The notes: a model not told the origin generated them from the letters alone. A DNA stretch of 42,421 nucleotides from Gemmatimonadota bacterium (GCA_947504615.1 CANNKR010000001.1:1-42421), one strand, 5' to 3'. Shown: positions 1,046 to 42,191, counted from the stretch's first letter. Translations and numbers: made by a program.

Positions 1046-1094
1046 CAAATTGCCCTCGCGAGACTGGGTAAGGCACCCTACCTTACCAGCCTGT

Positions 1095-12000: not shown

Positions 12001-14080
12001 GGGCTCCAACGTCACCGTCACGGGCAACGTCGCGGGTACCGGCAACGTCTCCGTGGCCGGCCAGCTGTGGCCCAACGGACACACGCTGACTGTCTCCAAC
12101 ACCAACGCCCCGTCATACGGCAGCCAGCTGAGCATCTTGCCCACGGGCAACCTGAAGATGACGCTGCCGGCCGACAGCGTCCTGGCCTACAACGCGGACT
12201 TTGGCGGCGTAGCGAGCGACACGTCACTCACGGCCGGCTTCCTCCGCCTGGATAACAGCTTCTCGCAGTCCGGTGATGCGAAGTCCTTTGCGCCCACCGG
12301 AACGCACGTCACGTCGCTCAAGGCCACCGCCTTTAACAATGCCCTGCGCGCCATCACCGAAACGGCCGTGCCCACCCGCACCCGCCGGAGCATGGCGTTC
12401 AACCTCCTGCAGTTTGCCAACCCGGGATACACGGCATCGCATTTCAACATCCTGCGACTCGACCAAAACAACTTCTCCGTGGACCTGGGATCGAACGTGT
12501 ATGCCAACCGCGTCGTCACCGGCGACACATTGCGGACGCGGACGGTGTCCGGTTCGGGAAGCACATTGTTCATGAAGGACGGCAGCCTGGTGAATCTCAG
12601 TTTCAGCGGTGCGCTGCTGCAGGTGGATTCCGCCGTCACAACCACCCAGCTCGATTCGGTGTCGTTCTACGCGCAGGCGGTCACAGCCGACCAGATAACG
12701 CTCAACCTCACAAGCGGAGCCACGCCGACGCTCACCAACCTGTCGTTCGGCGCGGCACCGACCACCGGGCGCTACCTCGTGGTCAACGGGGCCGGCACTG
12801 CGACGATGGGGAACCCGAATCCGGGCGCGCACGGCGGGTTCGTCGGCACCACCGGCGGCGCGGCAATCAGCGGCTGGATCGCGTCGCGCAACATGACGGC
12901 GGCGACCTCCGGGGACTGGAGCACACCAGCGACCTGGTCACCAGCCGGCCTCCCTTCCATGCACGACACCGTCACCATCGCGACGGGGGCCACCGTCCAG
13001 CTCACCGGGGGAGGAAGCGTCAAGCACATGGTAATGGCCGCCGGCGCGGGCTTGAATATCCAGAGCTTCCAGACCCTCAACGTCTACGGCAACTGGACAT
13101 CCGACACCACCAGTTCAGTGACGAGCGGCGGCTACGCGACCTACACGAACTTCTGGGGCGATGCCCTGGTGCGCGGTCGGCTGTGGGGCGCAAGCGTCAA
13201 CAAGAGCATGACGCTGGTTGGGCGTACCATTTTCGACGGTGATGTCAGCGTCGGAGACCAGGCCTCGTACAACCCGGTCGTGCTCGACATCAATGGCCAG
13301 GTGGCGACCACGAACTTCTATTTCAGCACGATGACTGGCGGCCGGCTGAAGATGACCGACCCCGCAGGCGTCCTGAACCTGCAGTATGGCGGAACCTTCA
13401 ACGGTGCCTCCACCGACGGTCTCCTGACCAACGGTGTCATGAACCTGAAGGGCACCTTCGGCGCCTCGGGTGTTTCCTTCTCTGCCACGGGCTCGCACGT
13501 CACCAATTTCGTCGGCATCACCAGCATCGACTTTCAGGGGCAGGGCGGATTTGGGTCGACACTCGGCCACTTCGCGACCGTCACCAACACCCTGCCCTTT
13601 GCCCAAGGCGCGATCATGCTGCAGAGCGACGTGTGGGCCGAGGGCAACCTGAACTCGGCGCCCGCCACGTCCGACTCCGTGCGGTTCCTCTCGACCGTGC
13701 CGCACACCTTCCATGCACGGGGGTTCAGCACGACCTCCGTGTCGGCGGCGACCCGCACGGTGTTCGACGGTGTGGCCGTCGACCTGGCCGACGGCGGGTC
13801 AATGGCCAGCACGGTGTACGGCCTGTCGTTCCGGAATCTGGCCGGCATGACCGCGTTCAAACTGACGCGCAGCGTGACCCCGGCCATCACCTTCAATGGA
13901 TGGGCCTTCCAGTACCTCAGCGTCGGCACACCCACCAAGTTCATCGACGCCACATCCACGGTCTCCCCGATGACGATCACGATGACCGGCCACACGCCGT
14001 CGCTGGCGCAGCTCACCACAAACTCTCTCGTGCTCAGCAATTTCCTGGTCACGTCGAACGCGTCGGTGACCTGGCCCTAA
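9065..14080 (+). CDS. Giant lipoprotein, paralog of 1095..8294, with a different C-terminal half (two repeats of about 400 aa, possibly beta-helix-like)
   Basis: Same N-terminus and lipobox (ARRLALVAGLLTVALISCGREITGPG). It is colinear with gene 1 for about 860 aa. After about nt 11670 it switches to two large repeats, each opening with W-x-x-P-A-(S/T)-W-S-P-A-G-x-P...D-x-V-T-I. Confidence 0.85.
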   Translation: MTHSTPPARRLALVAGLLTVALISCGREITGPGTSPVNAFKRFAAFAFSPQYETVVPSTALQAALTQVAFERVRITLRREDGTIALDTVVSFPAGADSLTLSLIVPLAASAPASGVPLTLNLGYVNAAGDTVFKGGPIPVTVTPSTGGAPPAPVQVPVHYTGTGSNATAVSISPKSITGLAGQSNAFTAQALTATGQAIPGTPIVYTSSNAGVVRVANPSSGAADFIGRGTAFVYAQLLTGPKDSAVVTVTLPASTLALVSGSNQTASAGSSLPLPIAAQVRAVDGIGVAGVTVNFAVASGAGTITPSSAISASNGQVSASWKLGTTAGAQSMTVSAPGLSGSPITVNATALALVASKLVMTTAPSGGKAGGVLPVTAVTAQDALGNTVTTFTGDVSVALSTNPGSATLAGTTTVKAVNGVATFGTLTLNRPGTGYTFLFTSSGLSSVGSTSFDIATGDAAKLLFGAMPSTADAGIAIAPAIQVTAQDSAGNTATSFTGAVTVAIGANPGASTLGGTATRTAVAGVAAFNDLVLNKKGISYSLRASSPGLSDGVSNAFSISPGTPVALAVVSGNAQSKPAGSVLDVITVRLRDAQDNGIESERVAFAVTGGGGVLSAASALTDASGSASVAWTIGTGPQTMTATSGTLAPLTLTATATAPPGGTATQLVITRQPRTSSASGALDTVIVTAKDSSGSVAASFTGTVAMGIVSGPVGASVIGPTSLNAVAGIASFNGIAFDKVGSYMLRFASSGLSNATTGFVTVTAGPAKNIVADSGVNQTGPTSQALPIPLVARITDQYGNKVTGASVSWAVASGGGTLSPTTTVSDTGGRVRAQWTLGGTVGTQSVTVSSTGLTGSPLTYTATATAVASAYASVGVGGSWDNPASWSPAGIPGILDDVTIGLSTSIVLTATAAVHTLNITGGTLDLGANELKIGGNVAAASATINGIGKLSMTGGGARTLSLAQVSNLYVDTSTVVSLGSNVTVTGNVAGTGNVSVAGQLWPNGHTLTVSNTNAPSYGSQLSILPTGNLKMTLPADSVLAYNADFGGVASDTSLTAGFLRLDNSFSQSGDAKSFAPTGTHVTSLKATAFNNALRAITETAVPTRTRRSMAFNLLQFANPGYTASHFNILRLDQNNFSVDLGSNVYANRVVTGDTLRTRTVSGSGSTLFMKDGSLVNLSFSGALLQVDSAVTTTQLDSVSFYAQAVTADQITLNLTSGATPTLTNLSFGAAPTTGRYLVVNGAGTATMGNPNPGAHGGFVGTTGGAAISGWIASRNMTAATSGDWSTPATWSPAGLPSMHDTVTIATGATVQLTGGGSVKHMVMAAGAGLNIQSFQTLNVYGNWTSDTTSSVTSGGYATYTNFWGDALVRGRLWGASVNKSMTLVGRTIFDGDVSVGDQASYNPVVLDINGQVATTNFYFSTMTGGRLKMTDPAGVLNLQYGGTFNGASTDGLLTNGVMNLKGTFGASGVSFSATGSHVTNFVGITSIDFQGQGGFGSTLGHFATVTNTLPFAQGAIMLQSDVWAEGNLNSAPATSDSVRFLSTVPHTFHARGFSTTSVSAATRTVFDGVAVDLADGGSMASTVYGLSFRNLAGMTAFKLTRSVTPAITFNGWAFQYLSVGTPTKFIDATSTVSPMTITMTGHTPSLAQLTTNSLVLSNFLVTSNASVTWP

Positions 14081-28491: not shown

Positions 28492-31272
28492 TTACACGTA
28501 CGCGAAGAGCATCGCGTAGACGATCCCCAGCACGATCAGCGTCCCCATCGCCAGCGCCGTCCAGGCGAAGGTGCGGATGGTGCGGATCACGATCGGCTGA
28601 TAGGGCACCACGAGGTGCTCTTCCAGCTTGCCCGACGCCACCAGCTCCGCGTACTCGTCCGGCTTGTCGTGCTTCAGCTCTTCCACCGTCATGCGGCCGG
28701 TGAAGATCACCAGGTCCATCGGGAACTTCTCCGGACGCAAGTGCGTGTTGAAGAAGTGGATGGTGAAGATGAAGCCGGTGGCGAGCAGCGCTTCGTCGCT
28801 GTGGACGATGGTGGCCACGTTGACGAACCAGCCCGGGAAGAACCTGGAGAAGAAGACCGGGAACCAGAGCATCAGCCCGGTGGAGCCGATGACGAAAATG
28901 CCCCAGAACACGGCGAAGTAGTCGAACTTCTCCCAGTAGGTCCAGCGGCCGTACGTCGGGCGCTTGCCCTTGCCAAGGAACCACTTCACCGACCCGATGA
29001 GTTCACGCAGGTCGCGCTTGTTGAACATCATGGAGCCCGGGCCGAGCACCAGGTCCATCCAGGTGGTGCCGTCGCGGCGCTTGCGCTTGACGAGGTCCAC
29101 GAGGTGGGTGATGAAGACGGCCACCATGATGACGGCCGCATAGCGGTGGAAGTAGCCCGTGGTCTCGAATCCACCAAGCATGTGCGAGACCGCCACCGCC
29201 CATCCGGTATACGAGAACTTCAGCGTCATGCCCGTGAGGGCAAGGCTGATGAAGCTCAGGATCATGAAGACGTGCATCGCGCGGTGCAGCGGCGTGAAGC
29301 GCTGGTATTCGAGCTCGCCTTCCTTGGCGGGCGGATGGCGGCCGAACTCCTTCCGCATCTGGAGCGCGCGCGGGAGCCACATGAGCGTGTGCGCGCCGCT
29401 GACGGTGAAGGTCACCACCAGCAGCGTGGTCATGGCCCAGAAGACCCAGAACAGGATCGGATACTTGTTCAGGTCATGGTGCGTCGCATGCGTCAGGTAG
29501 CCGGCGAACTTCCGCGACGCGCCGACGTGGCACTTGGCGCAGGTCGCCACCACGTTCTGCCGGCTGAGGTGCGACCGGACGTCCGTGACCTTCAGGATGT
29601 CGTGCGCCCCGTGGCAGTCGTAGCACTGCGCCGTCTTGGTGTAGCCGAGGCGCGACACCTTGCCGTGGTAGGTCTCGAAGTAGGACTCGGCGATTTCCTT
29701 GTGGCAGCTGCCGCACTGCCCCATGATCTTGAGCTTGAAGCCGTCCGCGTCCGTGCGCCCGATGGTGTGGGCCGAGTGGCAGTCGTTGCAGACGGGGAGC
29801 TTCTTGCCGGACTTGCTGACGAGGGCCGAGTGGATGCTCTGCTCGAACTTCTTGGCAATGCCGTCGTGGCAGCCGCCGCAGGTGCGGGGCAGGTTGTTGC
29901 GGTTGACGCTCGACTGCGTGCTGTCGCGCGGCAGGACGCTGTGCGCGGTGTGGCAGCTCGTGCAGGTGGCGGTGACGACGAGGCCGCTCTCGATGAGTCC
30001 CTTGCCGTGGATGCTCTCGGCGTAGCGCTCGACGATCTGCGTCTCCGTCCCCGTGTAGGCGAGGGCCGCCTTCTTTCCGGTGCGGTGACAGCGCGCGCAG
30101 AGATCGGGGACGTGCGTCGGGAAGGACGTCGATCGCGGATCGGCCTTGCCCAGCACGTCGTGCGTGCCGTGGCATTGCTTGCAGCTGGGTCCGTTGGGGT
30201 CCTGCTTCGCCTCGAGCTGTCCGTGCGTGCTCTTCTGGTAGAGCGTGCCGATCTCGGCGTGGCAGGCCGCGCAGTTGACCTTTTGCGTGATCGTCTCGCA
30301 GGGGCGCATGCGTGACGGCGAGACGCCCGTGTGGCACTGGCTGCAGGACTGCTTCACATGCTTGGAGCCCGCGAGCTTCAGGCTGTCGACGAACAGCGAG
30401 CGGCCGTCCTTGGAGGCCTTGATGTCCTTGCGCTCGTGGCACCGCATGCAGTCGCGGTCGGCCATGCCCTGGTCGTAGAAGACCTTGCGGGCCTTGTGCG
30501 GCTCGTGGCAGTCCACGCAGGCGGGGAGGACGTGCGACTCACGCTCCCACAGCTTGCCCTGGATGACCTTGCGGTGCACCGCCTCGATGGCGGCGTGGCA
30601 GGTGGAGCAGGTCGCCGCGATGTTGGCGCGGGCGATCGACGACTTGGCGTCGGTGTGCGGCAGGATGGAGTGGGCCGTGTGGCACGACACGCACGTGGCC
30701 GTGACCGTCAGGCCCTTGTTCATGAGCGCATCGCCGTGGATGCTCTCGGTGTAGTTGGTGATGATGTTCGACTGATGGATCACGCGCTGCTTCTGGACGC
30801 GTCCGCCCTCGGAGTGGCACTGGCCGCAGAGGTACGGGATGCGCGTGGGCAGCACGGGCGAGCGCGGATCCTTGACCGCCAGCATCTCGTGCGTGCCGTG
30901 GCAGTTGCTGCAGTGTGGCGCCAGCTGGTCGCCGCGGGCGATCGCCTTGCCGTGCAGCGACTGCTCGTGCTGCTTCTGCTGGACGGCGTGGCAGCCGCCG
31001 CAGGTGGCCGGCTTCAGGGTTTCGTCGTGCGGAAGATCCTTGCCCTTCAGGTCGGCGTGACAGCCGATGCAGAGCGTCTTGCCATGGACCGTGCCCTCGA
31101 ACTTCGCCTGGTCCACGAACAGCGAAACAGTCTTGCCGGCGCGCTTCTTGGTGAGCGCCTTGTCGGTGTGACACGAGAGGCAGTCATCGTTCGCCTGCGC
31201 TCCGGCACTCCCCGGGACACCGAGCAGGAGCGCCAGGACGGCGGCGAATACAAGCGATGTCACGCGGTTCAT
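28492..31272 (-). CDS. Fusion cytochrome: a 19-heme c-type periplasmic domain plus a C-terminal FdnI/HydC-like b-type membrane domain (CbcL-like architecture)
   Basis: A signal peptide is followed by 19 CXXCH motifs (aa 31-585) with doubled-CXXCH spacing. Then about 5 TM helices carry conserved His residues (LHRAMHVF, YFHRYAAVIMVAVFITH, IVHSDEALLATGFIFTIHFFNTH). Confidence 0.85.
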   Translation of the reverse strand: MNRVTSLVFAAVLALLLGVPGSAGAQANDDCLSCHTDKALTKKRAGKTVSLFVDQAKFEGTVHGKTLCIGCHADLKGKDLPHDETLKPATCGGCHAVQQKQHEQSLHGKAIARGDQLAPHCSNCHGTHEMLAVKDPRSPVLPTRIPYLCGQCHSEGGRVQKQRVIHQSNIITNYTESIHGDALMNKGLTVTATCVSCHTAHSILPHTDAKSSIARANIAATCSTCHAAIEAVHRKVIQGKLWERESHVLPACVDCHEPHKARKVFYDQGMADRDCMRCHERKDIKASKDGRSLFVDSLKLAGSKHVKQSCSQCHTGVSPSRMRPCETITQKVNCAACHAEIGTLYQKSTHGQLEAKQDPNGPSCKQCHGTHDVLGKADPRSTSFPTHVPDLCARCHRTGKKAALAYTGTETQIVERYAESIHGKGLIESGLVVTATCTSCHTAHSVLPRDSTQSSVNRNNLPRTCGGCHDGIAKKFEQSIHSALVSKSGKKLPVCNDCHSAHTIGRTDADGFKLKIMGQCGSCHKEIAESYFETYHGKVSRLGYTKTAQCYDCHGAHDILKVTDVRSHLSRQNVVATCAKCHVGASRKFAGYLTHATHHDLNKYPILFWVFWAMTTLLVVTFTVSGAHTLMWLPRALQMRKEFGRHPPAKEGELEYQRFTPLHRAMHVFMILSFISLALTGMTLKFSYTGWAVAVSHMLGGFETTGYFHRYAAVIMVAVFITHLVDLVKRKRRDGTTWMDLVLGPGSMMFNKRDLRELIGSVKWFLGKGKRPTYGRWTYWEKFDYFAVFWGIFVIGSTGLMLWFPVFFSRFFPGWFVNVATIVHSDEALLATGFIFTIHFFNTHLRPEKFPMDLVIFTGRMTVEELKHDKPDEYAELVASGKLEEHLVVPYQPIVIRTIRTFAWTALAMGTLIVLGIVYAMLFAYV

Positions 31273-31305
31273 GTCACGGTTCCCTGGCCGAAAGGTGCTC
31301 CACGA

Positions 31306-33459
31306 TCACGCCGACGGATCGTCGGCATCGTCGGTCCCGCGCTCTGCCTGCTTCTCCTTCAGCCGTTCCAGTTCGAGCGGGTGCTCATCGAGCATTTCCC
31401 GCTCGGTCAGCGTGACCTTCCAGAACGCAAGGTTGATCGGGTAGATCTCGGGATTGAAGATCACGAAGTACATGTGCCACACGAGGATCGCGAGCGTGGC
31501 CAGCCAGGCCTCGTAGTAGTGCACGGTGCGCGCGACGTCCCAGCCCAGCTTGGTCAGCAGGCCGATGAACGTGTTGTCGAACCACAGGATCACGCCGGTG
31601 CCGCCCATCAGGATGGTGCCCCACACCAGCGCCCAGTATTCGCTCTTCTCGATGTAGCTGAAGCGCTCGAACTGCGGCTTGATGGCGGACAGCCCGAGGT
31701 TGTACTTCATCACGCCGATGGCGTCGCGGAGATCCTTGAACCCCGGGAGCAGGTCGCGGAAGAGCTGCCGTCCGCGCGGGACGAAGGCCAGGTAGTAGCA
31801 GTGATAGAGGCTGGCGATGACCATCACGATGCCGGCCACGCGATGCACGATGCTTCGGATGCCGAAGATCGACGGGCTGAGGCGCTGGAGCGGCGCGACC
31901 CACCAGGCTTCGGGGAACTTCAGCGCGAATCCGGTGATGACGAGCGTAAGGAAGCTCACCACCAGCGTGCCGTGCTGCAGCCGCTCACCAAGGGTCATGC
32001 GGACGTAGAGCGCGTGCCCGACGTGTTCTTCCTCGATCAGCCCGCGACGCAGCATCAGCTGCCGCTTCGACTTCTTGATGAAGTCGAGGAGGTTGTGCAC
32101 CAGCATGCCGCCGATGATCAGGACGATCAGGAGGATGTACGAGGTCGCGACCCAGTACAGCAGCGGCTCCTGCTGTTCGGTCAGCGTGATATGCACCGAT
32201 CCGATGGCGAAGCGCTCGTTGGCCTTGGGGTGGCACCGGCCGCACGTGATGATGAGGTTCGCCTTGTTGACGCTCGACGTCGGGTCGCTGGACGGCTTGA
32301 TGTCGTGGCCACTGTGGCAGCTCGCGCAGTTGGCCACCTCCAGCGAGCCCCCGCGGCTGGCGAGCCCGTGGTAGCTGTCGGTGAAGGTCCGGAAGCGGTC
32401 GCTCTTGAGCCCGTACTTGGCCGAGAGCAGGACCGACTGGTGGCACGGCGAGCAGACCTGCGACGACAGGTTCTTGGACGCCGTCCGCGACTCGGGATTC
32501 TTGCTGGACAGGATCGTGTGCTCGCCGTGGCACGTCGTGCACACCGGCGAGTCGGAGTTGCCCTTGGCCACGGCGGCGCCGTGGACGCTCTGCGCGTACG
32601 CCTCGGCGACCTTGGCGTGACACTGCGCACAGGTCGTCGGGATATTGGCGCGGTTGACGAACGAGGCCGGATCCGAGCCCTTCTTCATGTCGTGGCTGCC
32701 GTGGCAGCTCACGCAGTTGGCGGCCTTCGCCTCACCGCGGGCCAGGGCGGAGCCGTGCACGCTGGTGTCGTACGCCTTGATGAACCCCGCCGTCGGCGAG
32801 GTCCGCGCACGCACGTCCGGGTCATCGCGATGGCACGACAGGCAGAGCTCTTCCTGGGCGCGCTTGACCGACAGCGAATCGCCCGTGCCGAGCACGAACG
32901 CGACCGCACCGCGATGGCACGTCAGGCAGTTGGGCGCGCCCTTGACGCCGGCCGCCAGCGCCTTGCCGTGCGCAGACGCCGGGAAATGCTCCAACGCCTT
33001 CTTGTGGCACGATCCGCACGATTCGGTGAGGCGTCCCGGGGAGAACCTGGCGCCGGGACTCTTGGTCGACTCGACCATGTGCGTGCCGTGGCAGTCCTTG
33101 CACAGCGCACCGGGCTTGCCTGAGGCCTTGGCGGCCCCGCGGTGGAACTGGTGCTTGAACGCCGCCTTGGCGTGGCACCGCTGGCAGGCCACGGGCTCGA
33201 TAGTCGCCTTGTGCGGCAGGTCTTCCGGATTGAAGCCCGTATGACACGCGACGCACGCCAGCTTGGCGTGCGCCGATTTGTTGAGGTCAGACTCCCGGGC
33301 AAAAAGGGAGATCACCTTCTTGCCCGGACCTTCCTTGGTCAGCGTGGAATCGCTGTGACACTCGAGACAGACGGCTCTCGTCTGTGCGAGAGCCGAAGAT
33401 GCACCCAGTTGAAAGAGCCCGGCGAGCAACACCATCAACACCAGAACGCGCTGTCTCAT
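31306..33459 (-). CDS. Fusion cytochrome: a 13-heme c-type domain plus a FdnI/HydC-like b-type membrane domain; paralog of 28492..31272
   Basis: A signal peptide is followed by 13 CXXCH motifs (aa 31-410), then a TM domain with matching His positions (LQHGTLVV, IVHRVAGIVMVIASLYH, TVHYYEAWLATLAILVWH). The N-terminal 100 aa aligns with the 19-heme protein. Confidence 0.85.
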   Translation of the reverse strand: MRQRVLVLMVLLAGLFQLGASSALAQTRAVCLECHSDSTLTKEGPGKKVISLFARESDLNKSAHAKLACVACHTGFNPEDLPHKATIEPVACQRCHAKAAFKHQFHRGAAKASGKPGALCKDCHGTHMVESTKSPGARFSPGRLTESCGSCHKKALEHFPASAHGKALAAGVKGAPNCLTCHRGAVAFVLGTGDSLSVKRAQEELCLSCHRDDPDVRARTSPTAGFIKAYDTSVHGSALARGEAKAANCVSCHGSHDMKKGSDPASFVNRANIPTTCAQCHAKVAEAYAQSVHGAAVAKGNSDSPVCTTCHGEHTILSSKNPESRTASKNLSSQVCSPCHQSVLLSAKYGLKSDRFRTFTDSYHGLASRGGSLEVANCASCHSGHDIKPSSDPTSSVNKANLIITCGRCHPKANERFAIGSVHITLTEQQEPLLYWVATSYILLIVLIIGGMLVHNLLDFIKKSKRQLMLRRGLIEEEHVGHALYVRMTLGERLQHGTLVVSFLTLVITGFALKFPEAWWVAPLQRLSPSIFGIRSIVHRVAGIVMVIASLYHCYYLAFVPRGRQLFRDLLPGFKDLRDAIGVMKYNLGLSAIKPQFERFSYIEKSEYWALVWGTILMGGTGVILWFDNTFIGLLTKLGWDVARTVHYYEAWLATLAILVWHMYFVIFNPEIYPINLAFWKVTLTEREMLDEHPLELERLKEKQAERGTDDADDPSA

Positions 33460-33495
33460 ATGCCGGCTAATCTCTCAACTGGGGGGAATGGCGTA

Positions 33496-34029
33496 CTAGG
33501 CCGCAGGCTTCTTGTGCGCGATCTTGGCCCAGCTCTCTTCGAAGTTGAAGGCCTTCGCCGTCGGGCTCTTCTCGTTGTGGCAGGTCTTGCACATCGCTTC
33601 GATGGCTGCCTTGTCCGCAAACGCCACCATGCCCTTCGCGACCGCATCGGCACGGACCTTCATCACGGCCATGCCCTTGTAATCGGCGCCCGCCCCGTGG
33701 CACGTCTCACACTGCACGCCGTCCTTTACATCGGCCTTGGCATCGCCAACGATGGCATGGCACTTGAGGCATTCCGGAGAGGCCGCCGCAGCCGTCGTGA
33801 GCCCCTTCGCCTTGGTGATGGAATCAGCCGCCGGCGTGGTCAGCGTCGTGTACGCGCCCGCATGCTTCGACTTCTCCCACACGGGACCCTGGAGTCCCTG
33901 CTTCTCGGTCTTGTGGCACATGGTGCAGCCCTTCACGCCGGCGTACGCGTGCGGCGCCTGTGCGCCGGCCAGGTTCGCGAGGGACAGCGTGGCGGCGAGC
34001 ATTGCGGAAACAGACAGTGTGCGCATCAT
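33496..34029 (-). CDS. Periplasmic tetraheme c-type cytochrome
   Basis: GGAG lies 6 nt upstream of the ATG at 34029. It has a signal peptide and four CXXCH motifs (CTMCH, CLKCH, CETCH, CKTCH). Confidence 0.8.
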   Translation of the reverse strand: MMRTLSVSAMLAATLSLANLAGAQAPHAYAGVKGCTMCHKTEKQGLQGPVWEKSKHAGAYTTLTTPAADSITKAKGLTTAAAASPECLKCHAIVGDAKADVKDGVQCETCHGAGADYKGMAVMKVRADAVAKGMVAFADKAAIEAMCKTCHNEKSPTAKAFNFEESWAKIAHKKPAA

Positions 34030-34065
34030 GAAGTGCTCCTCTTGTCGGTGCGGTATGAATCGACC

Positions 34066-34079
34066 CAACTCATGAGTTG
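34066..34079. promoter_or_regulatory. 14-bp perfect palindrome in the divergent cytochrome control region
   Basis: CAACTCATGAGTTG lies 37 nt upstream of the tetraheme start codon. It is flanked by a direct repeat TATGAATC at 34054-34061 and 34112-34119. Confidence 0.3.
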
Positions 34080-34200
34080 ACCGGGCGTCGCGATCGGCGT
34101 CCCTGGTACGCTATGAATCTCAACAGGCGTACGGGTGATGGAAAGTGTGGAACTACGGTCGTCTTCTTGCGGGAATTGCTGACACGCAGGTAAGGGAATA

Positions 34201-34241
34201 GCGCAGGGCGCGGCGGCGCCTGTTGCCGCCTCGCCCTGCGC
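34201..34241 (+). promoter_or_regulatory. Strong GC hairpin upstream of the ImcH-like gene
   Basis: GCGCAGGGCGCGGCGGC (34201-34217) pairs with GCCGCCTCGCCCTGCGC (34225-34241), giving a 17-bp stem with 1 mismatch and a 7-nt loop. It ends 69 nt before the ATG at 34310. Confidence 0.35.
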
Positions 34242-34309
34242 AGAACGGTGCACGGGATATTACTGTTGCGACGTGCTGTTTCCGTCGCGAGCAACCGGAG
34301 AGTGGTGTC

Positions 34310-35845
34310 ATGCGTTCGAAACTTCCTTCGTCCTTCGTCAATCCGATCACCTTTGGCGGCCTGGCGATAGCGGCGATCAGCTTCATCGTCATCATTTTTC
34401 TGGCGGTGCTCGAATACTTTGCCAAGTCGCCCAATCCGTACATGGGCATCCTGGCCTTCGTCATCGTGCCGTCGGTGCTCCTCAGCGGCGTGGCCATCGC
34501 GGCGTTCGGCGTCTGGCGCGAGCATCGCCTGCAGCAGAGTGACCGCCCGATCGAGCGTCGCCTGCCCACGGTCGACCTCAACAACCCGAGTCATCGCACC
34601 GCGCTCGCCCTGGTCGCGTTCGGATCACTGGCGCTCATCCTGTTCTCGAGCTTTGGCAGCTTCAAGGCGTACGAGCACATGGAGTCGGACGCGTTCTGCG
34701 GGCAGAGCTGCCACACCGCGATGGAGCCGGAATACACCCTGTACGCCAACTCGCCGCACGCCAAGGTGGGATGTGTGCAGTGCCACATCGGCTCAGGCGC
34801 CGGCTGGTTCGTCCGCTCGAAGCTCTCGGGCAGCTACCAGTTGTACGCCGTGCTCTTCAACAAGATCTCACGCCCCATCCAGACGCCGATCACCAACCTG
34901 CGCCCGGCGCAGGAGACGTGCGAGCAGTGCCACTGGCCCAAGCAGTTCTACAGCGCCAAGCTGCGCAGCATGACGTACTACACGTCGGACGAGAAGACCA
35001 CCAAGTGGGAACTGGATCTCCTGATGAAGATCGGCGGCGGCAACCAGAGCGCCGGCCCGACCAACGGGATCCACTGGCACATGAACATCGGGAACAAGGT
35101 GACGTACGTGCCGACCGATCTGTCGCGGCAGACCATCCCCTGGGTGCGCTCCGAAGGTCCCGATGGCACCGTGCACACGTACCGGAGCACCGAGGTGGCG
35201 CTGACCGCGGCCGACTCGATCGCCAACCCGGCCCGGCGCATGGACTGCATCGATTGCCACAACCGCCCGTCCCACATTTACACGCCACCGGCACGCGCGG
35301 TGAATCACCTGATGGCGCTTGGCTCCATCGATCCGACGCTGCCGAACGCCAAGGACCTGGCCGTCTTCGTGCTCGAGACCCCGTATTCGACCACCCAGGC
35401 CGGCGTGGACAGCATCAAGATCGCGATCAACGAGTACTACGCCGGCAACTACCCAGCGCTGCTGACCACCAAGCGCAAGTCGATCGACCAGATGATCAGC
35501 GAGGTGCAGGGGTTCTACAGCAAGAACTACTTCCCGCTGATGAAGGCCGACTGGAAAGCGTTCCCGAACAACATCGGGCACATGTACTTCCTCGGCTGCT
35601 TCCGCTGCCACGACGGCAAGCATGTCGCCGAGAACGGCAAGGTGCTGTCCAAGGACTGCAACGTCTGCCACGCCATTCTCGCACAGAAGTTCGAGCGGGA
35701 CACTATCCGCATTGCACTGAAGGGGATCAAGTACCAGCACCCCGTGGACGTGGGCGATGAGTGGCAGACCTCGAACTGCAGCGAGTGCCACAACCCGCCG
35801 GCCTCCAAGAAACCACGGGCGATCGGCGAGCACGTGACGAAGTAG
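34310..35845 (+). CDS. Membrane-anchored multiheme c-type cytochrome, NapC/NirT-related, ImcH-like (3 TM; 6 CXXCH plus 1 CX3CH)
   Basis: GGAG lies upstream of the ATG at 34310. Three N-terminal TM helices are followed by the heme sites CGQSCH (CX3CH), CVQCH, CEQCH, CIDCH, CFRCH, CNVCH and CSECH. Confidence 0.8.
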   Translation: MRSKLPSSFVNPITFGGLAIAAISFIVIIFLAVLEYFAKSPNPYMGILAFVIVPSVLLSGVAIAAFGVWREHRLQQSDRPIERRLPTVDLNNPSHRTALALVAFGSLALILFSSFGSFKAYEHMESDAFCGQSCHTAMEPEYTLYANSPHAKVGCVQCHIGSGAGWFVRSKLSGSYQLYAVLFNKISRPIQTPITNLRPAQETCEQCHWPKQFYSAKLRSMTYYTSDEKTTKWELDLLMKIGGGNQSAGPTNGIHWHMNIGNKVTYVPTDLSRQTIPWVRSEGPDGTVHTYRSTEVALTAADSIANPARRMDCIDCHNRPSHIYTPPARAVNHLMALGSIDPTLPNAKDLAVFVLETPYSTTQAGVDSIKIAINEYYAGNYPALLTTKRKSIDQMISEVQGFYSKNYFPLMKADWKAFPNNIGHMYFLGCFRCHDGKHVAENGKVLSKDCNVCHAILAQKFERDTIRIALKGIKYQHPVDVGDEWQTSNCSECHNPPASKKPRAIGEHVTK

Positions 35846-35856
35846 GCGACGCCGCG

Positions 35857-37566
35857 ATGCACGAGGACCACGCCCCCGGGGCCGAACCGGCGCTGGCCGA
35901 GACCCTGCGGCATCTCGAGCAACGCCTGGCACGCATCGAGGCGCAGCTGGCGCTTCCGCCGCTCCCGGCGGTGGCGTCAACCGTGACTGCAGGGTCACCC
36001 GGCGCGCCCGAGTCCGCGGTGCCAAGCATCGCTGCGGCCGTGGTGCCGGACGAAGTACCGGGCGGCACCCAGGACAGCACCCAGGGCGAGGGCGAACTCG
36101 AGTTCGTCGTGGGGCAGAACTGGCTGGCGAGCGTGGGCATCCTCGTGCTCACGTGCGGCGTCGGCTTTGCGCTGCTGCTGCCGCTGGCCGGACTTCCCCC
36201 GGTGGCACCGTCGCTTGCCGGCTGGGTGGTGGCCGGGTGCCTGCTGGCGCTGGCGCACCGATGGCGCACCTCGTTCGAACTCGTCTCGGGCTATTTCCGC
36301 GGTGCCGGCATGGCGCTGCTGTACTTCGCCACGCTGCGGCTGTTCTTCTTTGGCGCCACGCACGTGCTCGACATCGGCTCGGCCATCGGCCGGGTGCTGC
36401 TGTGTGGCGTGGTGATCGGCAACCTCGTGGTGGCGTTGCGGCAGCGGTCCGCCTGGCTTCTGGGCCTCGCGCTCGTCACCGGGTTCATCACCACGGTTGC
36501 CGTCGGCGCTCCGGCCTTTGTCTTTGCGGGCGTGGCGCTGCTGCTGGCGCTCGCCGCATATGCCGCGGTCGCGCACGACTGGCCCTGGCTCCCGCTGCTG
36601 GCGATCCCGGCAGGGTACCTGGCGCACCTCATCTGGCTGCTGAATCGCCCGTGGTCTGGGCGATCGTTCGAGATCGTCGGCAAGCCGGCCGTCGCGCCAT
36701 TCGTGGTGCTGGCGTACGTACTGATCAATGCGATGGCCTCGTACCGGCGGCGCGACCGGTCGGCGGAGGACCCGGCCACGGTCATCGCGGTGCTGATCAA
36801 CTGCGGCGGCTACGGGCTGTTCGTCCTGGCAACGATGGGGACGGCGCCGGCGATGTTCGGGCCGGCGCACCTGGCGGCGGCGGTCGTCTTCCTGGGGCTT
36901 GCCGTGGCATTCTGGCGCAGCGAGACGAGCCGCATCGCGACGTTCTTCTATGCCATGACCGGCTACATGGCCCTCAGCGTCGCGCTCGCGAAGCTGATTC
37001 CCGTCCCGAACCTGTTCATCTGGCTTTCGGGTCAGAGCCTGCTGGTGGTGGCGACGGCGCTCTGGTTCCGGAACAAGCTGATCGTCGTCGGCAACTTCTT
37101 CATCTACGCCTCCATCGTCGGCGCGTACATGGTGGTGGCGACGTCCGAGAGCGGCATCAGCATCGGCTTTGGCGTGGTCGCACTGATGACCGCCCGCATC
37201 CTCCATTGGCAGCAGCAGCGCCTGGAACTCAAGACCGAGATGATGCGCAATGCCTACCTGGCCAGCGCGTTCATCGTCTTTCCGTACTCGCTGTACCACC
37301 TGGTGCCACGGGCGTTCGTCGCCGTGTCGTGGGTGGGAGTCAGCGTGGTGTACTACGTGATGAACCTCATGGTACGCAGCCCCAAGTACCGGTGGATGGG
37401 GCACTTGACGCTGCTGCTCACGGCCCTGTACATGATCGTCATCGGCATCTTCCAGCTGGCCCCGATGCTCCGGATCGTGTCGTTCCTCGTGTTGGGGACC
37501 GTCCTGCTGGTGGTCTCGCTGATTTTCACCCAGGTGCGCGCGCGGGCGAAGACCCATTTACATTGA
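35857..37566 (+). CDS. DUF2339-like polytopic membrane protein
   Basis: The ATG lies 12 nt after the upstream stop. It has an N-terminal coiled segment (LRHLEQRLARIEAQL), then EFVVGQNWLASVGILVLTCGVGFALL and more than 12 TM helices, the typical DUF2339 layout. Confidence 0.7.
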   Translation: MHEDHAPGAEPALAETLRHLEQRLARIEAQLALPPLPAVASTVTAGSPGAPESAVPSIAAAVVPDEVPGGTQDSTQGEGELEFVVGQNWLASVGILVLTCGVGFALLLPLAGLPPVAPSLAGWVVAGCLLALAHRWRTSFELVSGYFRGAGMALLYFATLRLFFFGATHVLDIGSAIGRVLLCGVVIGNLVVALRQRSAWLLGLALVTGFITTVAVGAPAFVFAGVALLLALAAYAAVAHDWPWLPLLAIPAGYLAHLIWLLNRPWSGRSFEIVGKPAVAPFVVLAYVLINAMASYRRRDRSAEDPATVIAVLINCGGYGLFVLATMGTAPAMFGPAHLAAAVVFLGLAVAFWRSETSRIATFFYAMTGYMALSVALAKLIPVPNLFIWLSGQSLLVVATALWFRNKLIVVGNFFIYASIVGAYMVVATSESGISIGFGVVALMTARILHWQQQRLELKTEMMRNAYLASAFIVFPYSLYHLVPRAFVAVSWVGVSVVYYVMNLMVRSPKYRWMGHLTLLLTALYMIVIGIFQLAPMLRIVSFLVLGTVLLVVSLIFTQVRARAKTHLH

Positions 37567-37613: not shown

Positions 37614-38432
37614 ATGCGTGGCTCCCTGACACTACTGCTGGTCGCGTCCACCGCGATCGGCTGCTATTCCAAGACCGATACCGACGACTCCGCCAAGGTT
37701 CCCCTCGGCCAGATGCCTGCCGCGGCCGCCGCGGCCCCCGCCGCCCCGGCTGAAGGGCTGACCGGCAAGGTCGTCGAACTGTTGCCGGCCTCGCCGTACC
37801 TCTATATCCGCGTCAAGACGTCCACGGGCGACGTCTGGGCCGCCGTGCCGGAGACCAAGCTGGCGAACGGCGCCACGGTGACCGTGTACAGCGCGATGCT
37901 GATGACCAAGTTCGCGTCCAAGACGCTCAAGCGGACCTTCGACGAGGTCTACTTCGGCACGCTGACGCCGCCGGAGGCGGGCGCGGCAGGCGCCATGGGC
38001 GGGGCAATGGGCGGCGCTGCTGACGCCGCTGGTGCCGCGGGTGCCGCGGGTGCCTCTGGCACCAGCCCACACACGGGTGCGCCGGCTGCGGCCCCGGTCC
38101 AGGTGGGCAAGGTGGAGAAGGCCACGGGCGCTGACGCCAAGACGGTCGCCGATGCCTGGGCGCAGAAAGCGGGCCTCGCCGGCAAGACGGTCACCATCCG
38201 CGGCAAGGTCGTGAAGTTCAACGGCGCCGTGATGGGGAAGAACTGGATGCACCTGCAGGATGGCAGCGGCGACGCCACCAAGGGCACCAACGACATCACC
38301 GTGACCTCGATGGCCGAGGTGAAGGTGGGCGACCTCGTCACCATCACGGGGACCGTCCGCACGGACAAGGATTTCGGCGCGGGCTACTTCTACGCGATCA
38401 TCGTGGAAGACGCAAAGGTCGTGAAGAACTAG
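37614..38432 (+). CDS. Lipoprotein with two OB-fold-like domains separated by an Ala/Gly-rich linker
   Basis: AGGAG lies 8 nt upstream of the ATG. Lipobox LVASTAIGC. There are two similar beta-rich modules (GKVVELLPASPYLYIRVKTSTGDVW... and TIRGKVVKFNGAVMGKNWMHLQDGSGD...). Only the 3' part of track ORF 36153..38432 is used. Confidence 0.7.
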   Translation: MRGSLTLLLVASTAIGCYSKTDTDDSAKVPLGQMPAAAAAAPAAPAEGLTGKVVELLPASPYLYIRVKTSTGDVWAAVPETKLANGATVTVYSAMLMTKFASKTLKRTFDEVYFGTLTPPEAGAAGAMGGAMGGAADAAGAAGAAGASGTSPHTGAPAAAPVQVGKVEKATGADAKTVADAWAQKAGLAGKTVTIRGKVVKFNGAVMGKNWMHLQDGSGDATKGTNDITVTSMAEVKVGDLVTITGTVRTDKDFGAGYFYAIIVEDAKVVKN

Positions 38433-39107: not shown

Positions 39108-39242
39108 GGGCGAGAGTCGGGGATCGTGTGGCGGTGAAACAGACGTGATGGAAATGTGGTGGATCAACTCCGTCGCGGACACCCGTGCGAACCACCCGAA
39201 CGTTCGCCAGCTTTCCTGAGCCTTTCACTCCGGGGACGCTCC

Positions 39243-39659
39243 ATGACCAGCATTCGCCTGACGATCACCGCCGCCACGCTCGCGCTGACCACCGGCACCC
39301 TTGGCGCCCAGCAGGGCGCGGCGCCGGCTGCTGCGCCACCCGCGCTCACGCGCACCGTGCTGGTGCAGAAGACGCTGAGCGCGCCGGGGCGCGACGGGGT
39401 GCTGGTGCGCGCCGAGCTCGTGGCCGGAGGGTCATCGGTGCGGCACACGCATCCCGGCGAGGAGTTCGGGTACGTCCTGGACGGCACGGTGTCGTTCGAC
39501 CTCGCCGGGCAGCCGACGCAGCTGCTCAAGGCCGGCGATTCGTTTTTCATCCCACCCAACACGCCGCACATCGCGCACAACACGGGCACGACCCCGGTGA
39601 AGCTCATCAGCACGTACATCGTGGAGACCGGAAAGCCGCTGTCCACGCCAGCGCCGTAG
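39243..39659 (+). CDS. Secreted cupin-domain protein
   Basis: It has a signal peptide and the cupin motifs HTHPGEEFGYVLDG and FFIPPNTPHIAHN. Confidence 0.75.
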   Translation: MTSIRLTITAATLALTTGTLGAQQGAAPAAAPPALTRTVLVQKTLSAPGRDGVLVRAELVAGGSSVRHTHPGEEFGYVLDGTVSFDLAGQPTQLLKAGDSFFIPPNTPHIAHNTGTTPVKLISTYIVETGKPLSTPAP

Positions 39660-39727
39660 GTGGCGCGGCGCGGCGTCATGCCCGCGACGTGATAGCCGCG
39701 CCTTGCACCCGGGGGTAGCTTCTCCCC

Positions 39728-40984
39728 GTGCACTTCGCCCTCAAGGTTCTCCTCGGCTTGGCCGCCGGTTTCGCCGTCGGCCTCGCGATCGCCACCGGCC
39801 ACGCCGACTTTCTCACCCCGGTGGCCCGCGTACTCGACACGGGCGGCACCATGTGGATCGCCGCCATCCGCATGACGGTCATCCCGCTCGTGATGAGCAG
39901 CATCATCGCGGGCGTCAATCGCGCCCCTGACGCCTCGACCATCGGTCGGCTCGGCGGGCGTGCCATGACTTTCTTTGTGGTGACCACGGCCATCGCCGGC
40001 GCGATGAGCGTGGCCATCGGCGCGCCGCTCCTCGGCCGCATCTCGCTCGACCCGGCCGCGGTGGCGGCGTTGCGCGCGACGGCGAGTACCGCGGGCGGAC
40101 CCGCCGGCACGATGCCCACACTGTCGCAATGGCTGGTCGACCTGGTCCCGCTGAACCCGGTGAAGGCGGCCGCGGACGGCGCCATGCTGCCGCTCATCGT
40201 CTTCACCGTCTCCTTCGCCATCGCGCTCTCGCGCGTGGACGCCGCGCGCCGCGCGCCGCTCGTCGCCGCCATCGAGGCGGTGGAGGATGCCACGCTGCGT
40301 CTGGTGCGCTGGGTCATCAACCTCGCGCCTTATGGTGTGTTCGCCCTGGCGGTGCCGCTGGGCGCCAAGCTGGGGCTCTCCGCCCTCGGCGCCATGGCGA
40401 GCTACACCGTGATCGTCTGCGGCGTCAGCGTGTTCTTCTGCGCGACCGTGCTCTACCCGGCGGCAGCTCTCCTCGGGCCCATCCGACTCTCGGTCTTTGC
40501 GCGCGCCTGGCTGCCGGCGCAGGCGGTGGCCTTCAGTGCACGGTCCTCGATGGCGGCCTTGCCGGCGATGATCGAGATCGCGCGCGACCGGCTGAAGCTG
40601 CCGCCGTCCATCCATGGCTTCCTCATTCCACTGGCGGCCTCGACGTTCCGCCCAGGCGCAGGGGTCGGACAGATCCTCGGCGCGCTCTTCATCGCCAAGC
40701 TGTATGGCATCTCGATCAGTATGGGTGGACTGGTCGCCATCGGCGCCACCGCCGTGGTGACCTCGTTTTCGGTGCCCGGCATTCCGGGCGGTTCGATCGT
40801 CGCGATGGTCCCCGTGCTGATGGTCGTGAACCTTCCGGTCGAGGGGATCGGCATCCTGCTCGGTGTCGACACCATCCTCGACATGTTTCGCACGACGACC
40901 AACACCACAGGGCACCTGGCCTCCGCGCTGGTGCTGGCGCACGGCGAGCGGTTGACCGATGGCGAGTCGGCGACCGCCGAGTGA
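39728..40984 (+). CDS. Dicarboxylate/amino acid:cation symporter (DAACS/GltP family)
   Basis: It has a GTG start and family motifs (MWIAAIRMTVIPLVMSSIIAGV, SSMAALPAM, PGIPGGSIVAMVPVL, DTILDMFRTTTNTTG). Confidence 0.85.
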   Translation: MHFALKVLLGLAAGFAVGLAIATGHADFLTPVARVLDTGGTMWIAAIRMTVIPLVMSSIIAGVNRAPDASTIGRLGGRAMTFFVVTTAIAGAMSVAIGAPLLGRISLDPAAVAALRATASTAGGPAGTMPTLSQWLVDLVPLNPVKAAADGAMLPLIVFTVSFAIALSRVDAARRAPLVAAIEAVEDATLRLVRWVINLAPYGVFALAVPLGAKLGLSALGAMASYTVIVCGVSVFFCATVLYPAAALLGPIRLSVFARAWLPAQAVAFSARSSMAALPAMIEIARDRLKLPPSIHGFLIPLAASTFRPGAGVGQILGALFIAKLYGISISMGGLVAIGATAVVTSFSVPGIPGGSIVAMVPVLMVVNLPVEGIGILLGVDTILDMFRTTTNTTGHLASALVLAHGERLTDGESATAE

Positions 40985-41033
40985 ACCGCAGGGCGTACCG
41001 CCGCGTTGACCGTGGAAGTTCCCCCGCCCTGCC

Positions 41034-42191
41034 ATGACCGTGCCCACACCGCTGTTGTTCGCCCTCCCCTGGCTGGTGCTGCCCGGCCTCGTGCTCTGGC
41101 GTCTGTCTCGCTCGACCTTCCTCAGGGACGAACCGAACACCCCACCTGACGATGCGCCGTTCGTCAGCGTCATCTGTCCCGCGCGCGACGAGGCGCGGCA
41201 CATTGACGCGTTCGTGCGCGCCGCGCTGGCCAGCACGTATCCCCGTTTCGAACTCATCGTCGTCGACGACCATTCCACCGACGGCACCGGTATGATGGCC
41301 CGCGCCGCCGGGGCCGATGACCCGCGCCTCGTCGTCGTCGACGCACCGCCGCTCCCCATCGGCTGGTTCGGCAAACAATGGGCCTGCCACGCGGGCGCAC
41401 TCCGCGCACGCGGCGACGTGATGCTCTTCACCGACGCCGACACGCGACACGGCCCGGAACTGCTGGTGCGCGGCATCAATGCCATGCGCCGCCGACAGAG
41501 CGACCTGCTCTCGATCGCCGGGCGCCAGGAACTGGGTTCGTTCTGGGAGCGCGTCGTGCAGCCCGCCATCTTCGCCACGCTCTTCTCGACATTCGGCGGC
41601 ACCGAGGCGGTCAGCGACTCCCAGCGCCCACGCGAGAAAATCGCCAACGGCCAGTGCCTGCTGGTCCGCCGCGATGCGTACGACGCACTCGGCGGCCACG
41701 CCGCCGTGCGCGCCTTCGCCGCCGAGGACCTGATGCTCGCGCAGCAATGGTGCGCGGCCGGCAAGCGCGTGCATCTGGTGGCGGGCCTCGAATACTTGTC
41801 CACGCGGATGTACGCATCGCTCGGCGAGATCATCGACGGCTGGGCCAAGAACACATTCGCCGCCGGCAAGTACGTGATGCCCGACCACCCGGCCGCGCTG
41901 TGGCTGCTGCGGCTGGGGATGCCACTGGGGCCGGCGACCGGATGGATTCCGGTGCTGGCGCTGGCGCTCGGCATCGCTGGCGTCGCGCCGGCGTCCTGGG
42001 CGCTGTTCGGCGGCGCGGCCTACGGTGCATCGGTGCTGTACTGGCTGATCATCGTCCGTTTGACGGAGATCCCGCTGGGTTACGCGCTGCTGCACCCGCT
42101 GGGGGCGATGGTAGCGAGTTACATCTACGCGAAGGCGGCGTGGAACGGGGATCGGGTGAAGTGGAAGGCGAGGAGTTACACCGCGAAGTAA
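41034..42191 (+). CDS. Family 2 glycosyltransferase with C-terminal TM helices (CrtQ/HpnI-like)
   Basis: It has an N-terminal TM helix and the GT2 core VSVICPARDEARHI...LIVVDDHSTDGT...GWFGKQWACHAG...FTDADT...ANGQCLLVRR...AEDL. Confidence 0.8.
   Translation: MTVPTPLLFALPWLVLPGLVLWRLSRSTFLRDEPNTPPDDAPFVSVICPARDEARHIDAFVRAALASTYPRFELIVVDDHSTDGTGMMARAAGADDPRLVVVDAPPLPIGWFGKQWACHAGALRARGDVMLFTDADTRHGPELLVRGINAMRRRQSDLLSIAGRQELGSFWERVVQPAIFATLFSTFGGTEAVSDSQRPREKIANGQCLLVRRDAYDALGGHAAVRAFAAEDLMLAQQWCAAGKRVHLVAGLEYLSTRMYASLGEIIDGWAKNTFAAGKYVMPDHPAALWLLRLGMPLGPATGWIPVLALALGIAGVAPASWALFGGAAYGASVLYWLIIVRLTEIPLGYALLHPLGAMVASYIYAKAAWNGDRVKWKARSYTAK

Follow-up and report, generated by a model that had tools for sequence, protein, structure and literature searches.

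A divergent group of multiheme cytochrome genes lies at positions 28492-35845 of a 42,421-nucleotide (nt) stretch of DNA from a Gemmatimonadota bacterium (GCA_947504615.1 CANNKR010000001.1:1-42421), and we refer to this whole 42-kb stretch as the window. The locus is the Gemmatimonadota copy of a widely conserved inner-membrane quinone/cytochrome oxidoreductase cluster, in which a gene of the imcH family accompanies genes for FdnI-type cytochromes b fused to multiheme cytochromes c. It belongs to families known from Geobacter and is real and well formed, and not a new kind of system. The linkage of imcH with the b/c fusion genes is conserved across phyla and apparently has not been described. 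The locus encodes four cytochromes, called A to D here:

33496-34029, minus strand: A, predicted tetraheme periplasmic cytochrome of the c554 type (177 amino acids (aa), Sec signal peptide, 4 CXXCH)
32185-33459, minus strand: periplasmic part of B, signal peptide and 13-heme c domain (aa 1-425, 13 CXXCH)
31306-32184, minus strand: membrane part of B, one transmembrane (TM) anchor and a predicted four-helix FdnI-type cytochrome b domain (PF01292)
29473-31272, minus strand: periplasmic part of C, signal peptide and 19-heme c domain (19 CXXCH)
28492-29472, minus strand: membrane part of C, TM anchor, predicted FdnI-type cytochrome b domain and an extra C-terminal TM helix (PF01292)
34030-34309, no strand: divergent intergenic region between A and D, 280 nt as calculated from the coordinates
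34310-35845, plus strand: D, predicted inner-membrane cytochrome of the ImcH family (511 aa, 3 TM helices, CX3CH and six CXXCH)

A, B and C form a minus-strand operon from which D diverges, and the coordinates leave only 36 nt between A and B and 33 nt between B and C. Public gene calls on the source contig (ENA metagenome, 87,407 nt) agree with these limits (A 177 aa, B 717 aa, C 926 aa, D 511 aa). The start of D was corrected from the TTG at 34223 of the listed open reading frame (ORF) to the ATG at 34310, because its homologs measure 497-511 aa and the public gene call is 511 aa long. A direct motif count gives 4 CXXCH in A, 13 in B, 19 in C and 6 in D, which carries in addition one CX3CH (CGQSCH), for a sum of 42 + 1. 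An earlier note on this DNA, written by a model from the sequence, had described the four ORFs, their narrow gaps and divergent layout, and 42 canonical heme sites plus one CX3CH; all of this was reproduced in the ORF list, the public gene calls and the motif count, save for the start of D. No other stop-to-stop ORF of at least 80 aa, in any frame of the window, contains two or more CXXCH. Since none of them has even two, the concentration of heme motifs at this locus is not a matter of chance. The 280 nt between A and D presumably hold both promoters. A scan of this region for the sigma-70 consensus, which is uninformative for this lineage, gave zero sites, and a scan for promoter and terminator consensus sequences gave no more sites than were found in shuffled sequence.

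We assign D to the ImcH family because of its helix and motif architecture, its homology to NapC, NirT and NrfH, and the invariant Gln and Lys of its putative heme-1 site. Hydropathy places three hydrophobic helices at aa 16-34, 47-65 and 98-116 of the 511 aa (numbered from the ATG at 34310), followed by CGQSCH at 130-135 and by CXXCH at 155, 204, 313, 430, 450 and 490. According to a 2018 survey of ImcH and CbcL homologs (PMC6295460), the 507-aa ImcH of Geobacter sulfurreducens (GSU3259) has TM helices at 13-35, 45-67 and 100-122 and heme motifs at 132, 156, 205, 311, 428, 448 and 486. The heme motifs of the two proteins thus coincide within at most 4 residues of these published positions, and both proteins combine three N-terminal TM helices, a CX3CH heme 1 directly after TM3 and six CXXCH of the same spacing in chains of similar length (507 and 511 aa). 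D matches the Pfam NapC/NirT model PF03264 with E 9.4e-10 and 38.9 bits, above the cutoff of 24.1; its match to the NCBIfam NrfH model TIGR03153 (E 1.6e-12, 48 bits) remains below the equivalog cutoff of 134, as expected. Heme 1 of ImcH is ligated by His137 and Gln179, and Lys173 is conserved (bioRxiv 10.1101/2023.05.03.539133). H135, Q177 and K171 of D, invariant in an alignment of 32 sequences, correspond to H137, Q179 and K173 at a constant offset of -2, as matched by position and not by alignment to GSU3259. These features bear out the three-helix, seven-site, NapC/NirT-related and ImcH-like cytochrome that the model had seen here.

Relatives of D are numerous, with more than 7,000 in the database at E 1e-10 or better. 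Among the matches listed, D is about 60% identical to proteins of Bacteroidota and Ignavibacteria, and its closest named relative is a protein from a Gemmatimonadota metagenome-assembled genome (MAG; 65% identity). In the 2018 survey, ImcH homologs come from 12 phyla, with two homologs in Gemmatimonadetes, and those outside the Geobacter group share 31-49% identity with it (PMC6295460). The AlphaFold model of D has a mean predicted local distance difference test score (pLDDT) of 57.8, falling below 50 in the heme region, and was discarded for the fold search as too poor.

The membrane domains of B and C are, as judged from profile matches, alignments and a structural model, FdnI-type cytochromes b. 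Hydrophobic helices occupy about aa 436-668 of B and aa 606-924 of C. B is predicted to have five TM helices, namely the anchor and a four-helix bundle, with a cytoplasmic C-terminus and a soluble tail; C is predicted to have six, the sixth lying at the C-terminus. Both exceed the PF01292 cutoff of 30.1 bits (B: E 6.5e-15, 55.8 bits; C: 31.4 bits). The AlphaFold model of B is of moderate quality (pLDDT 63), and its top match in the PDB is FdnI of Escherichia coli formate dehydrogenase-N (1kqf_C; E 4.5e-4, probability 1.00, target TM-score 0.70). The cytochrome b of hydrogenase Hyd-1 (6g94_A) ranked third by E-value (0.88; probability 0.97). In this Foldseek search only FdnI and the Hyd-1 cytochrome b were matched with high probability, and only FdnI with E below 0.001. 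When the membrane domains were used as queries against the PDB chain, H18 and H57 of FdnI aligned to H496 and H539 of B, and H155 and H169 of FdnI to H824 and H839 of C (E 3.8e-4). We take these four residues of FdnI to be its crystallographic heme ligands, and the four columns aligned to them hold His in 97-100% of 59 fused family members from the loci that we fetched. A family profile of full-length B did not reach FdnI in the PDB, as the c domain dominated the search. The earlier description of diheme b domains of FdnI/HydC type is therefore upheld by PF01292 scores above cutoff, by FdnI as the best fold match and by ligand positions that fall on invariant His; similarity to b-type cytochromes is present and the conserved His lie inside the TM helices.

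Like FdnI (1KQF chain C) and HyaC, the two domains have a four-helix di-heme b fold with all four ligands in register. They differ from both in lacking FdnG/FdnH or hydrogenase subunits, in scoring far under the equivalog cutoffs, and in adding an N-terminal TM anchor joined to a cytochrome c domain as well as two invariant His. These two further TM His, which have no FdnI counterpart, are at least 97% conserved in the 59 fused proteins, from many phyla:

about 32095-32097: B H455, equivalent to C H628, extra His at the cytoplasmic end of the anchor helix
about 31801-31803: B H553, equivalent to C H723, extra His on TM3, 14 residues below the periplasmic-side ligand

The B and C clades thus share six TM His with a conservation of at least 97%, and the cytoplasmic level holds four of them, as against two in FdnI. 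The 2018 survey of the CbcL/MtrH/MtoC family reports only three TM His conserved across the whole family (PMC6295460). In relatives where the fusion is split, the extra His of the anchor helix stays on the cytochrome c subunit.

In a scan of one genome per species we obtained at least 595 loci with an ImcH-like gene, of which the best 80 were taken with 10-kb flanks; linkage was counted over the 71 of these loci that extend at least 2.5 kb upstream. An ORF with a b domain of the B or C type lies within 10 kb of the imcH-like gene in 58 of the 71 loci, is adjacent to it (<400 nt) in 47, and stands directly upstream and co-directional with it in 45. B-type genes, with 9, 11, 13 or 18 hemes, occur in 56 loci and C-type genes in 19, both being found together in 17. 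Bacteroidota and Ignavibacteriota mostly have the genes in the order A-like, B, C (often split), imcH, Rieske, cytochrome b, 11-heme cytochrome and c554-like tetraheme. The imcH gene is inverted, diverging from A-B-C, in the window, in a second Gemmatimonadetes genome (L082) and in a Gemmatimonadetes MAG (L002). The latter also carries, at 649-1998 on the minus strand, a B-like gene of 449 aa and 12 hemes without a cytochrome b domain. Starting from the other partner, contigs chosen by their B and C homologs had imcH beside these genes in two cases out of three, while one Acidobacteriia contig encodes C and B without imcH nearby.

This arrangement differs from that of G. sulfurreducens, where the locus tags of imcH (GSU3259) and cbcL (GSU0274) are distant. 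In Caldithrix abyssi, too, the tags of the two homologs (Cabys_319 and Cabys_1801) lie far apart. Geobacteraceae bacterium GWB2_52_12 has an ImcH homolog (A2X80_11560) and a nine-heme CbcL homolog (A2X80_11570) whose tags are two steps apart, so that imcH and cbcL can be close even within the Geobacteraceae, to judge from Tables S2 and S3 of the survey (PMC6295460). A search of the literature, which is searchable only incompletely, gave no statement of a linkage between imcH and bc-type cytochromes, and the Melioribacter genome papers do not describe the cluster, one of them mentioning multiheme cytochromes only in passing. The earlier note had stressed that both protein types sit at one locus; they do so here, but the combination is nothing special, being usual in many phyla.

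B and C have Sec-type signal peptides, and their multiheme domains match the Pfam cytochrome c7, cytochrome c3 and Paired_CXXCH models, the last two being those against which the earlier note had proposed to search them. Alignments of 30 homologs show 13 invariant non-motif His in the c domain of B and 19 in that of C. The number of potential distal ligands therefore equals the number of hemes in each protein, which fits bis-His ligation of every c heme of B and C. The c domain of C consists of two tandem eight-heme modules of 243 aa (38% identical, E 2.9e-58) and three further hemes, and C owes its extra hemes to this internal tandem repeat. Chain A of PDB entry 28pb, a 278-aa 'Cytochrome c', matches the N-terminal heme modules of B and C with E 5e-8 and 5e-7, respectively, and is the sole solved structure with clear sequence similarity to these modules.

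Aligned over 719 columns, B and C share only 29.5% identity. The database search for homologs gave 5,639 hits for B and 3,732 for C. Among the matches listed, B and C have separate sets of orthologs, 60-87% identical to them, in Gemmatimonadota, Bacteroidota, Ignavibacteriota, Acidobacteriota and Latescibacteria, the closest named relatives being Gemmatimonadota MAG proteins (83% for B, 87% for C). Because of this low mutual identity and these separate sets of orthologs across phyla, we consider that B and C are old paralogous subfamilies, as their sequences indicate. The duplication of a CbcL-like gene at this locus, as the model had it, does not hold, and a recent local duplication was ruled out by the identity of about 29%.

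B and C share with CbcL (GSU0274) and with the CbcL/MtrH/MtoC family (Zhong and Shi 2018) the fusion of a multiheme periplasmic c domain to a C-terminal b domain of FdnI/HydC type, and no iron-sulfur, flavin or molybdopterin partner is found for either protein. The six TM helices of C are spaced in a way that resembles CbcL, when compared with the published positions, whereas B has five; CbcL has 9 hemes against 13 in B and 19 in C. Homologs of the CbcL family in the survey range from 416 to 1034 aa and from 3 to 23 CXXCH in 15 phyla, with one in Gemmatimonadetes (PMC6295460). Table S2 of the survey includes the Gemmatimonadetes protein MAF27600.1 (951 aa, 19 motifs) together with more than 12 other 19-motif entries that are spaced alike, and the motif spacing of MAF27600.1 is that of C after an offset of 22 residues (PMC6295460). 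None of the rows of the family table that we examined matches a 13-motif protein of the B type (PMC6295460). A high heme count is a catalogued trait of the CbcL/MtrH/MtoC family. The great expansion in heme number remarked on by the model is thus real in comparison with Geobacter CbcL, but it is no novelty, since the range of 3 to 23 motifs, the 19-motif Gemmatimonadetes protein included, was tabulated in 2018 (PMC6295460). Many Bacteroidota and Ignavibacteriota encode the C type as two proteins, a 19-heme subunit anchored by one C-terminal TM helix and a b subunit some 290 aa long with a four-helix b domain, the break falling in the cytoplasmic loop that follows TM1. The arrangement is that of CbcA and CbcB in CbcBA of G. 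sulfurreducens (bioRxiv 10.1101/2023.05.03.539133), to which we liken these relatives by layout; C of the window differs from CbcBA in being fused and in having 19 hemes in place of 7.

Protein A is, by its sequence, a tetraheme cytochrome of the c554 type. It matches PF13435 with E 8.1e-13, and it aligns to cytochrome c554 of Nitrosomonas (1bvb_A) with all four motifs in register, a match that is weak (E 0.014 against the PDB chain). A has three non-motif His for its four hemes, which leaves one heme without a spare ligand, as in cytochrome c554 of Nitrosomonas europaea. The pairing of its gene with that of a NapC/NirT-related membrane cytochrome likewise recalls c554 and cM552. A differs from c554 in its length (177 aa against 211 aa) and in that its locus has no hydroxylamine oxidoreductase (HAO) gene; no HAO-like gene was found in the window or in the related loci. 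A-like genes are present at many of the related loci.

How the cluster would work can be proposed by analogy with Geobacter. There, ImcH oxidises menaquinol at the periplasmic face in an electroneutral reaction, and CbcL-type proteins have been proposed to oxidise menaquinol near the cytoplasmic face and to send electrons outward via two b hemes, a route of lower energy yield that permits the use of acceptors of lower potential (bioRxiv 10.1101/2023.05.03.539133). The reading that we favour, at a probability of roughly 55%, is that D, B and C are alternative quinol exits that feed a periplasmic heme network through A. D would oxidise menaquinol beside heme 1 at the periplasmic face, releasing protons to the periplasm and passing electrons along its seven c hemes. 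In B and C, an FdnI-like di-heme b bundle would link a quinone site close to the cytoplasmic side with a wire of 13 or 19 bis-His c hemes in the periplasm and so carry electrons through the membrane, and A may act as a soluble c554-type tetraheme that shuttles electrons onward. The three enzymes would thus be exits of the quinol pool that differ in energy yield and working potential, and the cluster would serve the anaerobic respiration of periplasmic or extracellular acceptors. Domain identities, heme-ligand conservation, predicted topology and gene linkage form the observed basis of this proposal; which way the electrons flow, which quinone and partners are used and what the terminal acceptor is, we infer from the work on Geobacter.

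Several points weigh against this proposal. B has five TM helices where six are usual in the CbcL/MtrH/MtoC family, of which a few members with four or five predicted helices are listed in the survey (PMC6295460). The confidence of the models of B and D is low (pLDDT 63 and 58), two invariant TM His are left unexplained by the FdnI model, and neither an outer-membrane conduit nor a terminal reductase is found in the 42-kb window. To our knowledge, Gemmatimonadota are not known as metal reducers, and in nitrifiers cytochrome c554 passes electrons inward to a NapC/NirT-type cytochrome. MtoC, a member of the same b/c fusion family, occurs in Fe(II) oxidisers and has been proposed to reduce quinone (PMC6295460), so that electrons may flow through B and C in either direction. 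The outward export of electrons, and the link to metal respiration that the earlier note had attached to it, accordingly go further than the sequence, which does not fix a direction.

Electrons could indeed run inward, or reversibly: B and C would accept them from donors in the periplasm or outside the cell, for instance from Fe(II) or from reduced cytochromes that periplasmic dehydrogenases feed, and would reduce quinone at the cytoplasmic face, electrogenically as in formate dehydrogenase-N, with A as a c554-like donor. This reading is supported by the b domains of B and C, which are of the type of FdnI, a protein characterised in the direction of quinone reduction, by the c554-type A, and by the MtoC relatives found in Fe(II) oxidisers (PMC6295460). 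Nevertheless, the 2018 survey places ImcH homologs only in organisms that transfer electrons outward (PMC6295460), the genes beside the relatives (Crp/Fnr, HemN, hydrogenase and conduit-like genes) suggest anaerobic respiration, and Cyc2-type or MtoAB genes were not seen in the neighbourhood, so that we regard inward flow as unlikely, if worth keeping in view. It is also conceivable that the operon is a single functional unit in which B and C reduce quinone at the cytoplasmic face with electrons from low-potential periplasmic cytochromes, and D re-oxidises the quinol on the periplasmic side and feeds cytochromes of higher potential, the flow between the two periplasmic pools building a proton-motive force. 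Such a loop would be in keeping with the very frequent and co-directional linkage of imcH and b/c fusions across phyla and with the quinone sites of ImcH and CbcL, which have been proposed on opposite membrane faces. Yet it is a construction of reasoning throughout; the two enzyme types of Geobacter are genetically separable alternatives and not partners (PMC5322298); and some genomes have B and C with imcH not nearby, the two homologs of C. abyssi standing at distant tags. We therefore hold this loop to be quite improbable. In broader terms, ImcH and the b/c fusions might be one co-evolved unit, whether a periplasm-to-periplasm redox loop via the quinone pool or a supercomplex, and the extra His of B and C on the TM anchor and TM3 might serve a third b heme or a distinct quinol site, a speculation that we find distinctly doubtful.

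Automatic annotation points elsewhere, with JGI names such as 'formate dehydrogenase gamma subunit' for homologs of B and C and 'nitrate/TMAO reductase tetraheme subunit'. Together with weak NCBIfam matches to FdnI, NrfH and NrfB, these names would have B, C and D anchor an ordinary periplasmic reductase or oxidase of the Nrf, Hao, Phs or Fdn type in the membrane and supply it with electrons. All such matches are nevertheless far under the curated cutoffs: the TIGR01583 matches score 41.2 and 36.6 bits against 115.85, the TIGR02125 match reaches 26.2 bits against 121.5, and that of D to TIGR03153 is the one given above. A gene for a catalytic subunit is neither present in the window nor recurrent in the best 80 related loci, and genes for NrfA, HAO or sulfite reductase in particular do not recur in the vicinity, be it in the window or in the related loci. 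We have thus rejected the automatic names, and membership of an ordinary nitrite, hydroxylamine or sulfite reductase system, which the earlier note had named as the finding that would overturn its interpretation, seems scarcely credible to us.

The remaining genes of the window include those for a rhomboid protease, a NUDIX protein, a PAP2 protein, an S9 peptidase, an Nramp protein and two giant Ig-like proteins. No other cytochromes are found in the 42 kb, and none of its genes is recognisable as an outer-membrane conduit, in agreement with the earlier note. Two genes follow D on its strand:

35857-37566, plus strand: DUF2339 polytopic membrane protein of 569 aa, 11 nt 3' of D (PF10101, E 9.8e-13)
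37614-38432, plus strand: putative lipoprotein of 272 aa without a Pfam match, next after the DUF2339 gene

The trio formed by D, the DUF2339 protein and the 272-aa putative lipoprotein is also found in the second Gemmatimonadetes genome, and DUF2339 genes lie beside imcH-like genes at five further loci (L020, L032, L038, L044 and L073). It is possible that the DUF2339 protein is an accessory gene product of this cluster. The giant ORFs, at 1050-8294 and 9065-14080 on the plus strand (2414 and 1671 aa), have Ig-like domains of the Big_1/Big_2 type, lack heme motifs and probably encode surface proteins with no relation to the cytochrome locus. A 936-aa ORF at 39164-41974 on the minus strand was dismissed as spurious, having no Pfam match and overlapping plus-strand gene calls for a cupin, an SDF transporter and a glycosyltransferase. 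Spurious long ORFs of this kind are common in DNA of high guanine-plus-cytosine content.

The related loci are richer in neighbouring electron-transfer genes. A Rieske protein, a cytochrome b (PF00033), an 11-heme cytochrome and a c554-like tetraheme are encoded directly downstream of imcH in L003, L007, L010, L084, L086 and others, from Bacteroidota and Ignavibacteriota; this Rieske/cytochrome b unit is absent from the window. About 15 loci of the same two phyla encode, 3-6 kb downstream of imcH, a barrel-like protein of 438 aa without a Pfam match, a 14-heme cytochrome and a 6-heme lipoprotein that carries the Geobacter-type CX4CH...CXXCH motif (L035 11543-12859, L017 9653-10888 and L013 16368-17342 are examples), and these three proteins are a candidate porin-cytochrome conduit. 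In 18 loci a regulator of the Crp/Fnr type is encoded about 3 kb from imcH, and in 11 a radical-SAM/SPASM protein directly after it; examples from Acidobacteriota are L078 13026-13745 and L051 11783-13048. HemN, NiFe hydrogenase and more multiheme proteins are also found among the neighbours. This gene context of the relatives suggests a role in anaerobic electron transport.

In metagenomes, ImcH and CbcL serve as marker genes for extracellular electron transfer, and the 2014 paper that first described ImcH named the interacting proteins as the missing piece for sequence-based prediction. The window itself adds one more Gemmatimonadota example, and its main value lies in the conserved linkage between imcH and b/c fusions that it revealed. 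Outside Geobacter, imcH usually stands in an operon-like block with one or two FdnI-type b/c fusions and a c554-type tetraheme. This linkage nominates concrete partners for ImcH, and it suggests that annotation and study should treat the module as one unit in Acidobacteriota, Bacteroidota/Ignavibacteriota, Gemmatimonadota and other phyla, many of which are abundant in soils and sediments and have an anaerobic respiration that is poorly known.

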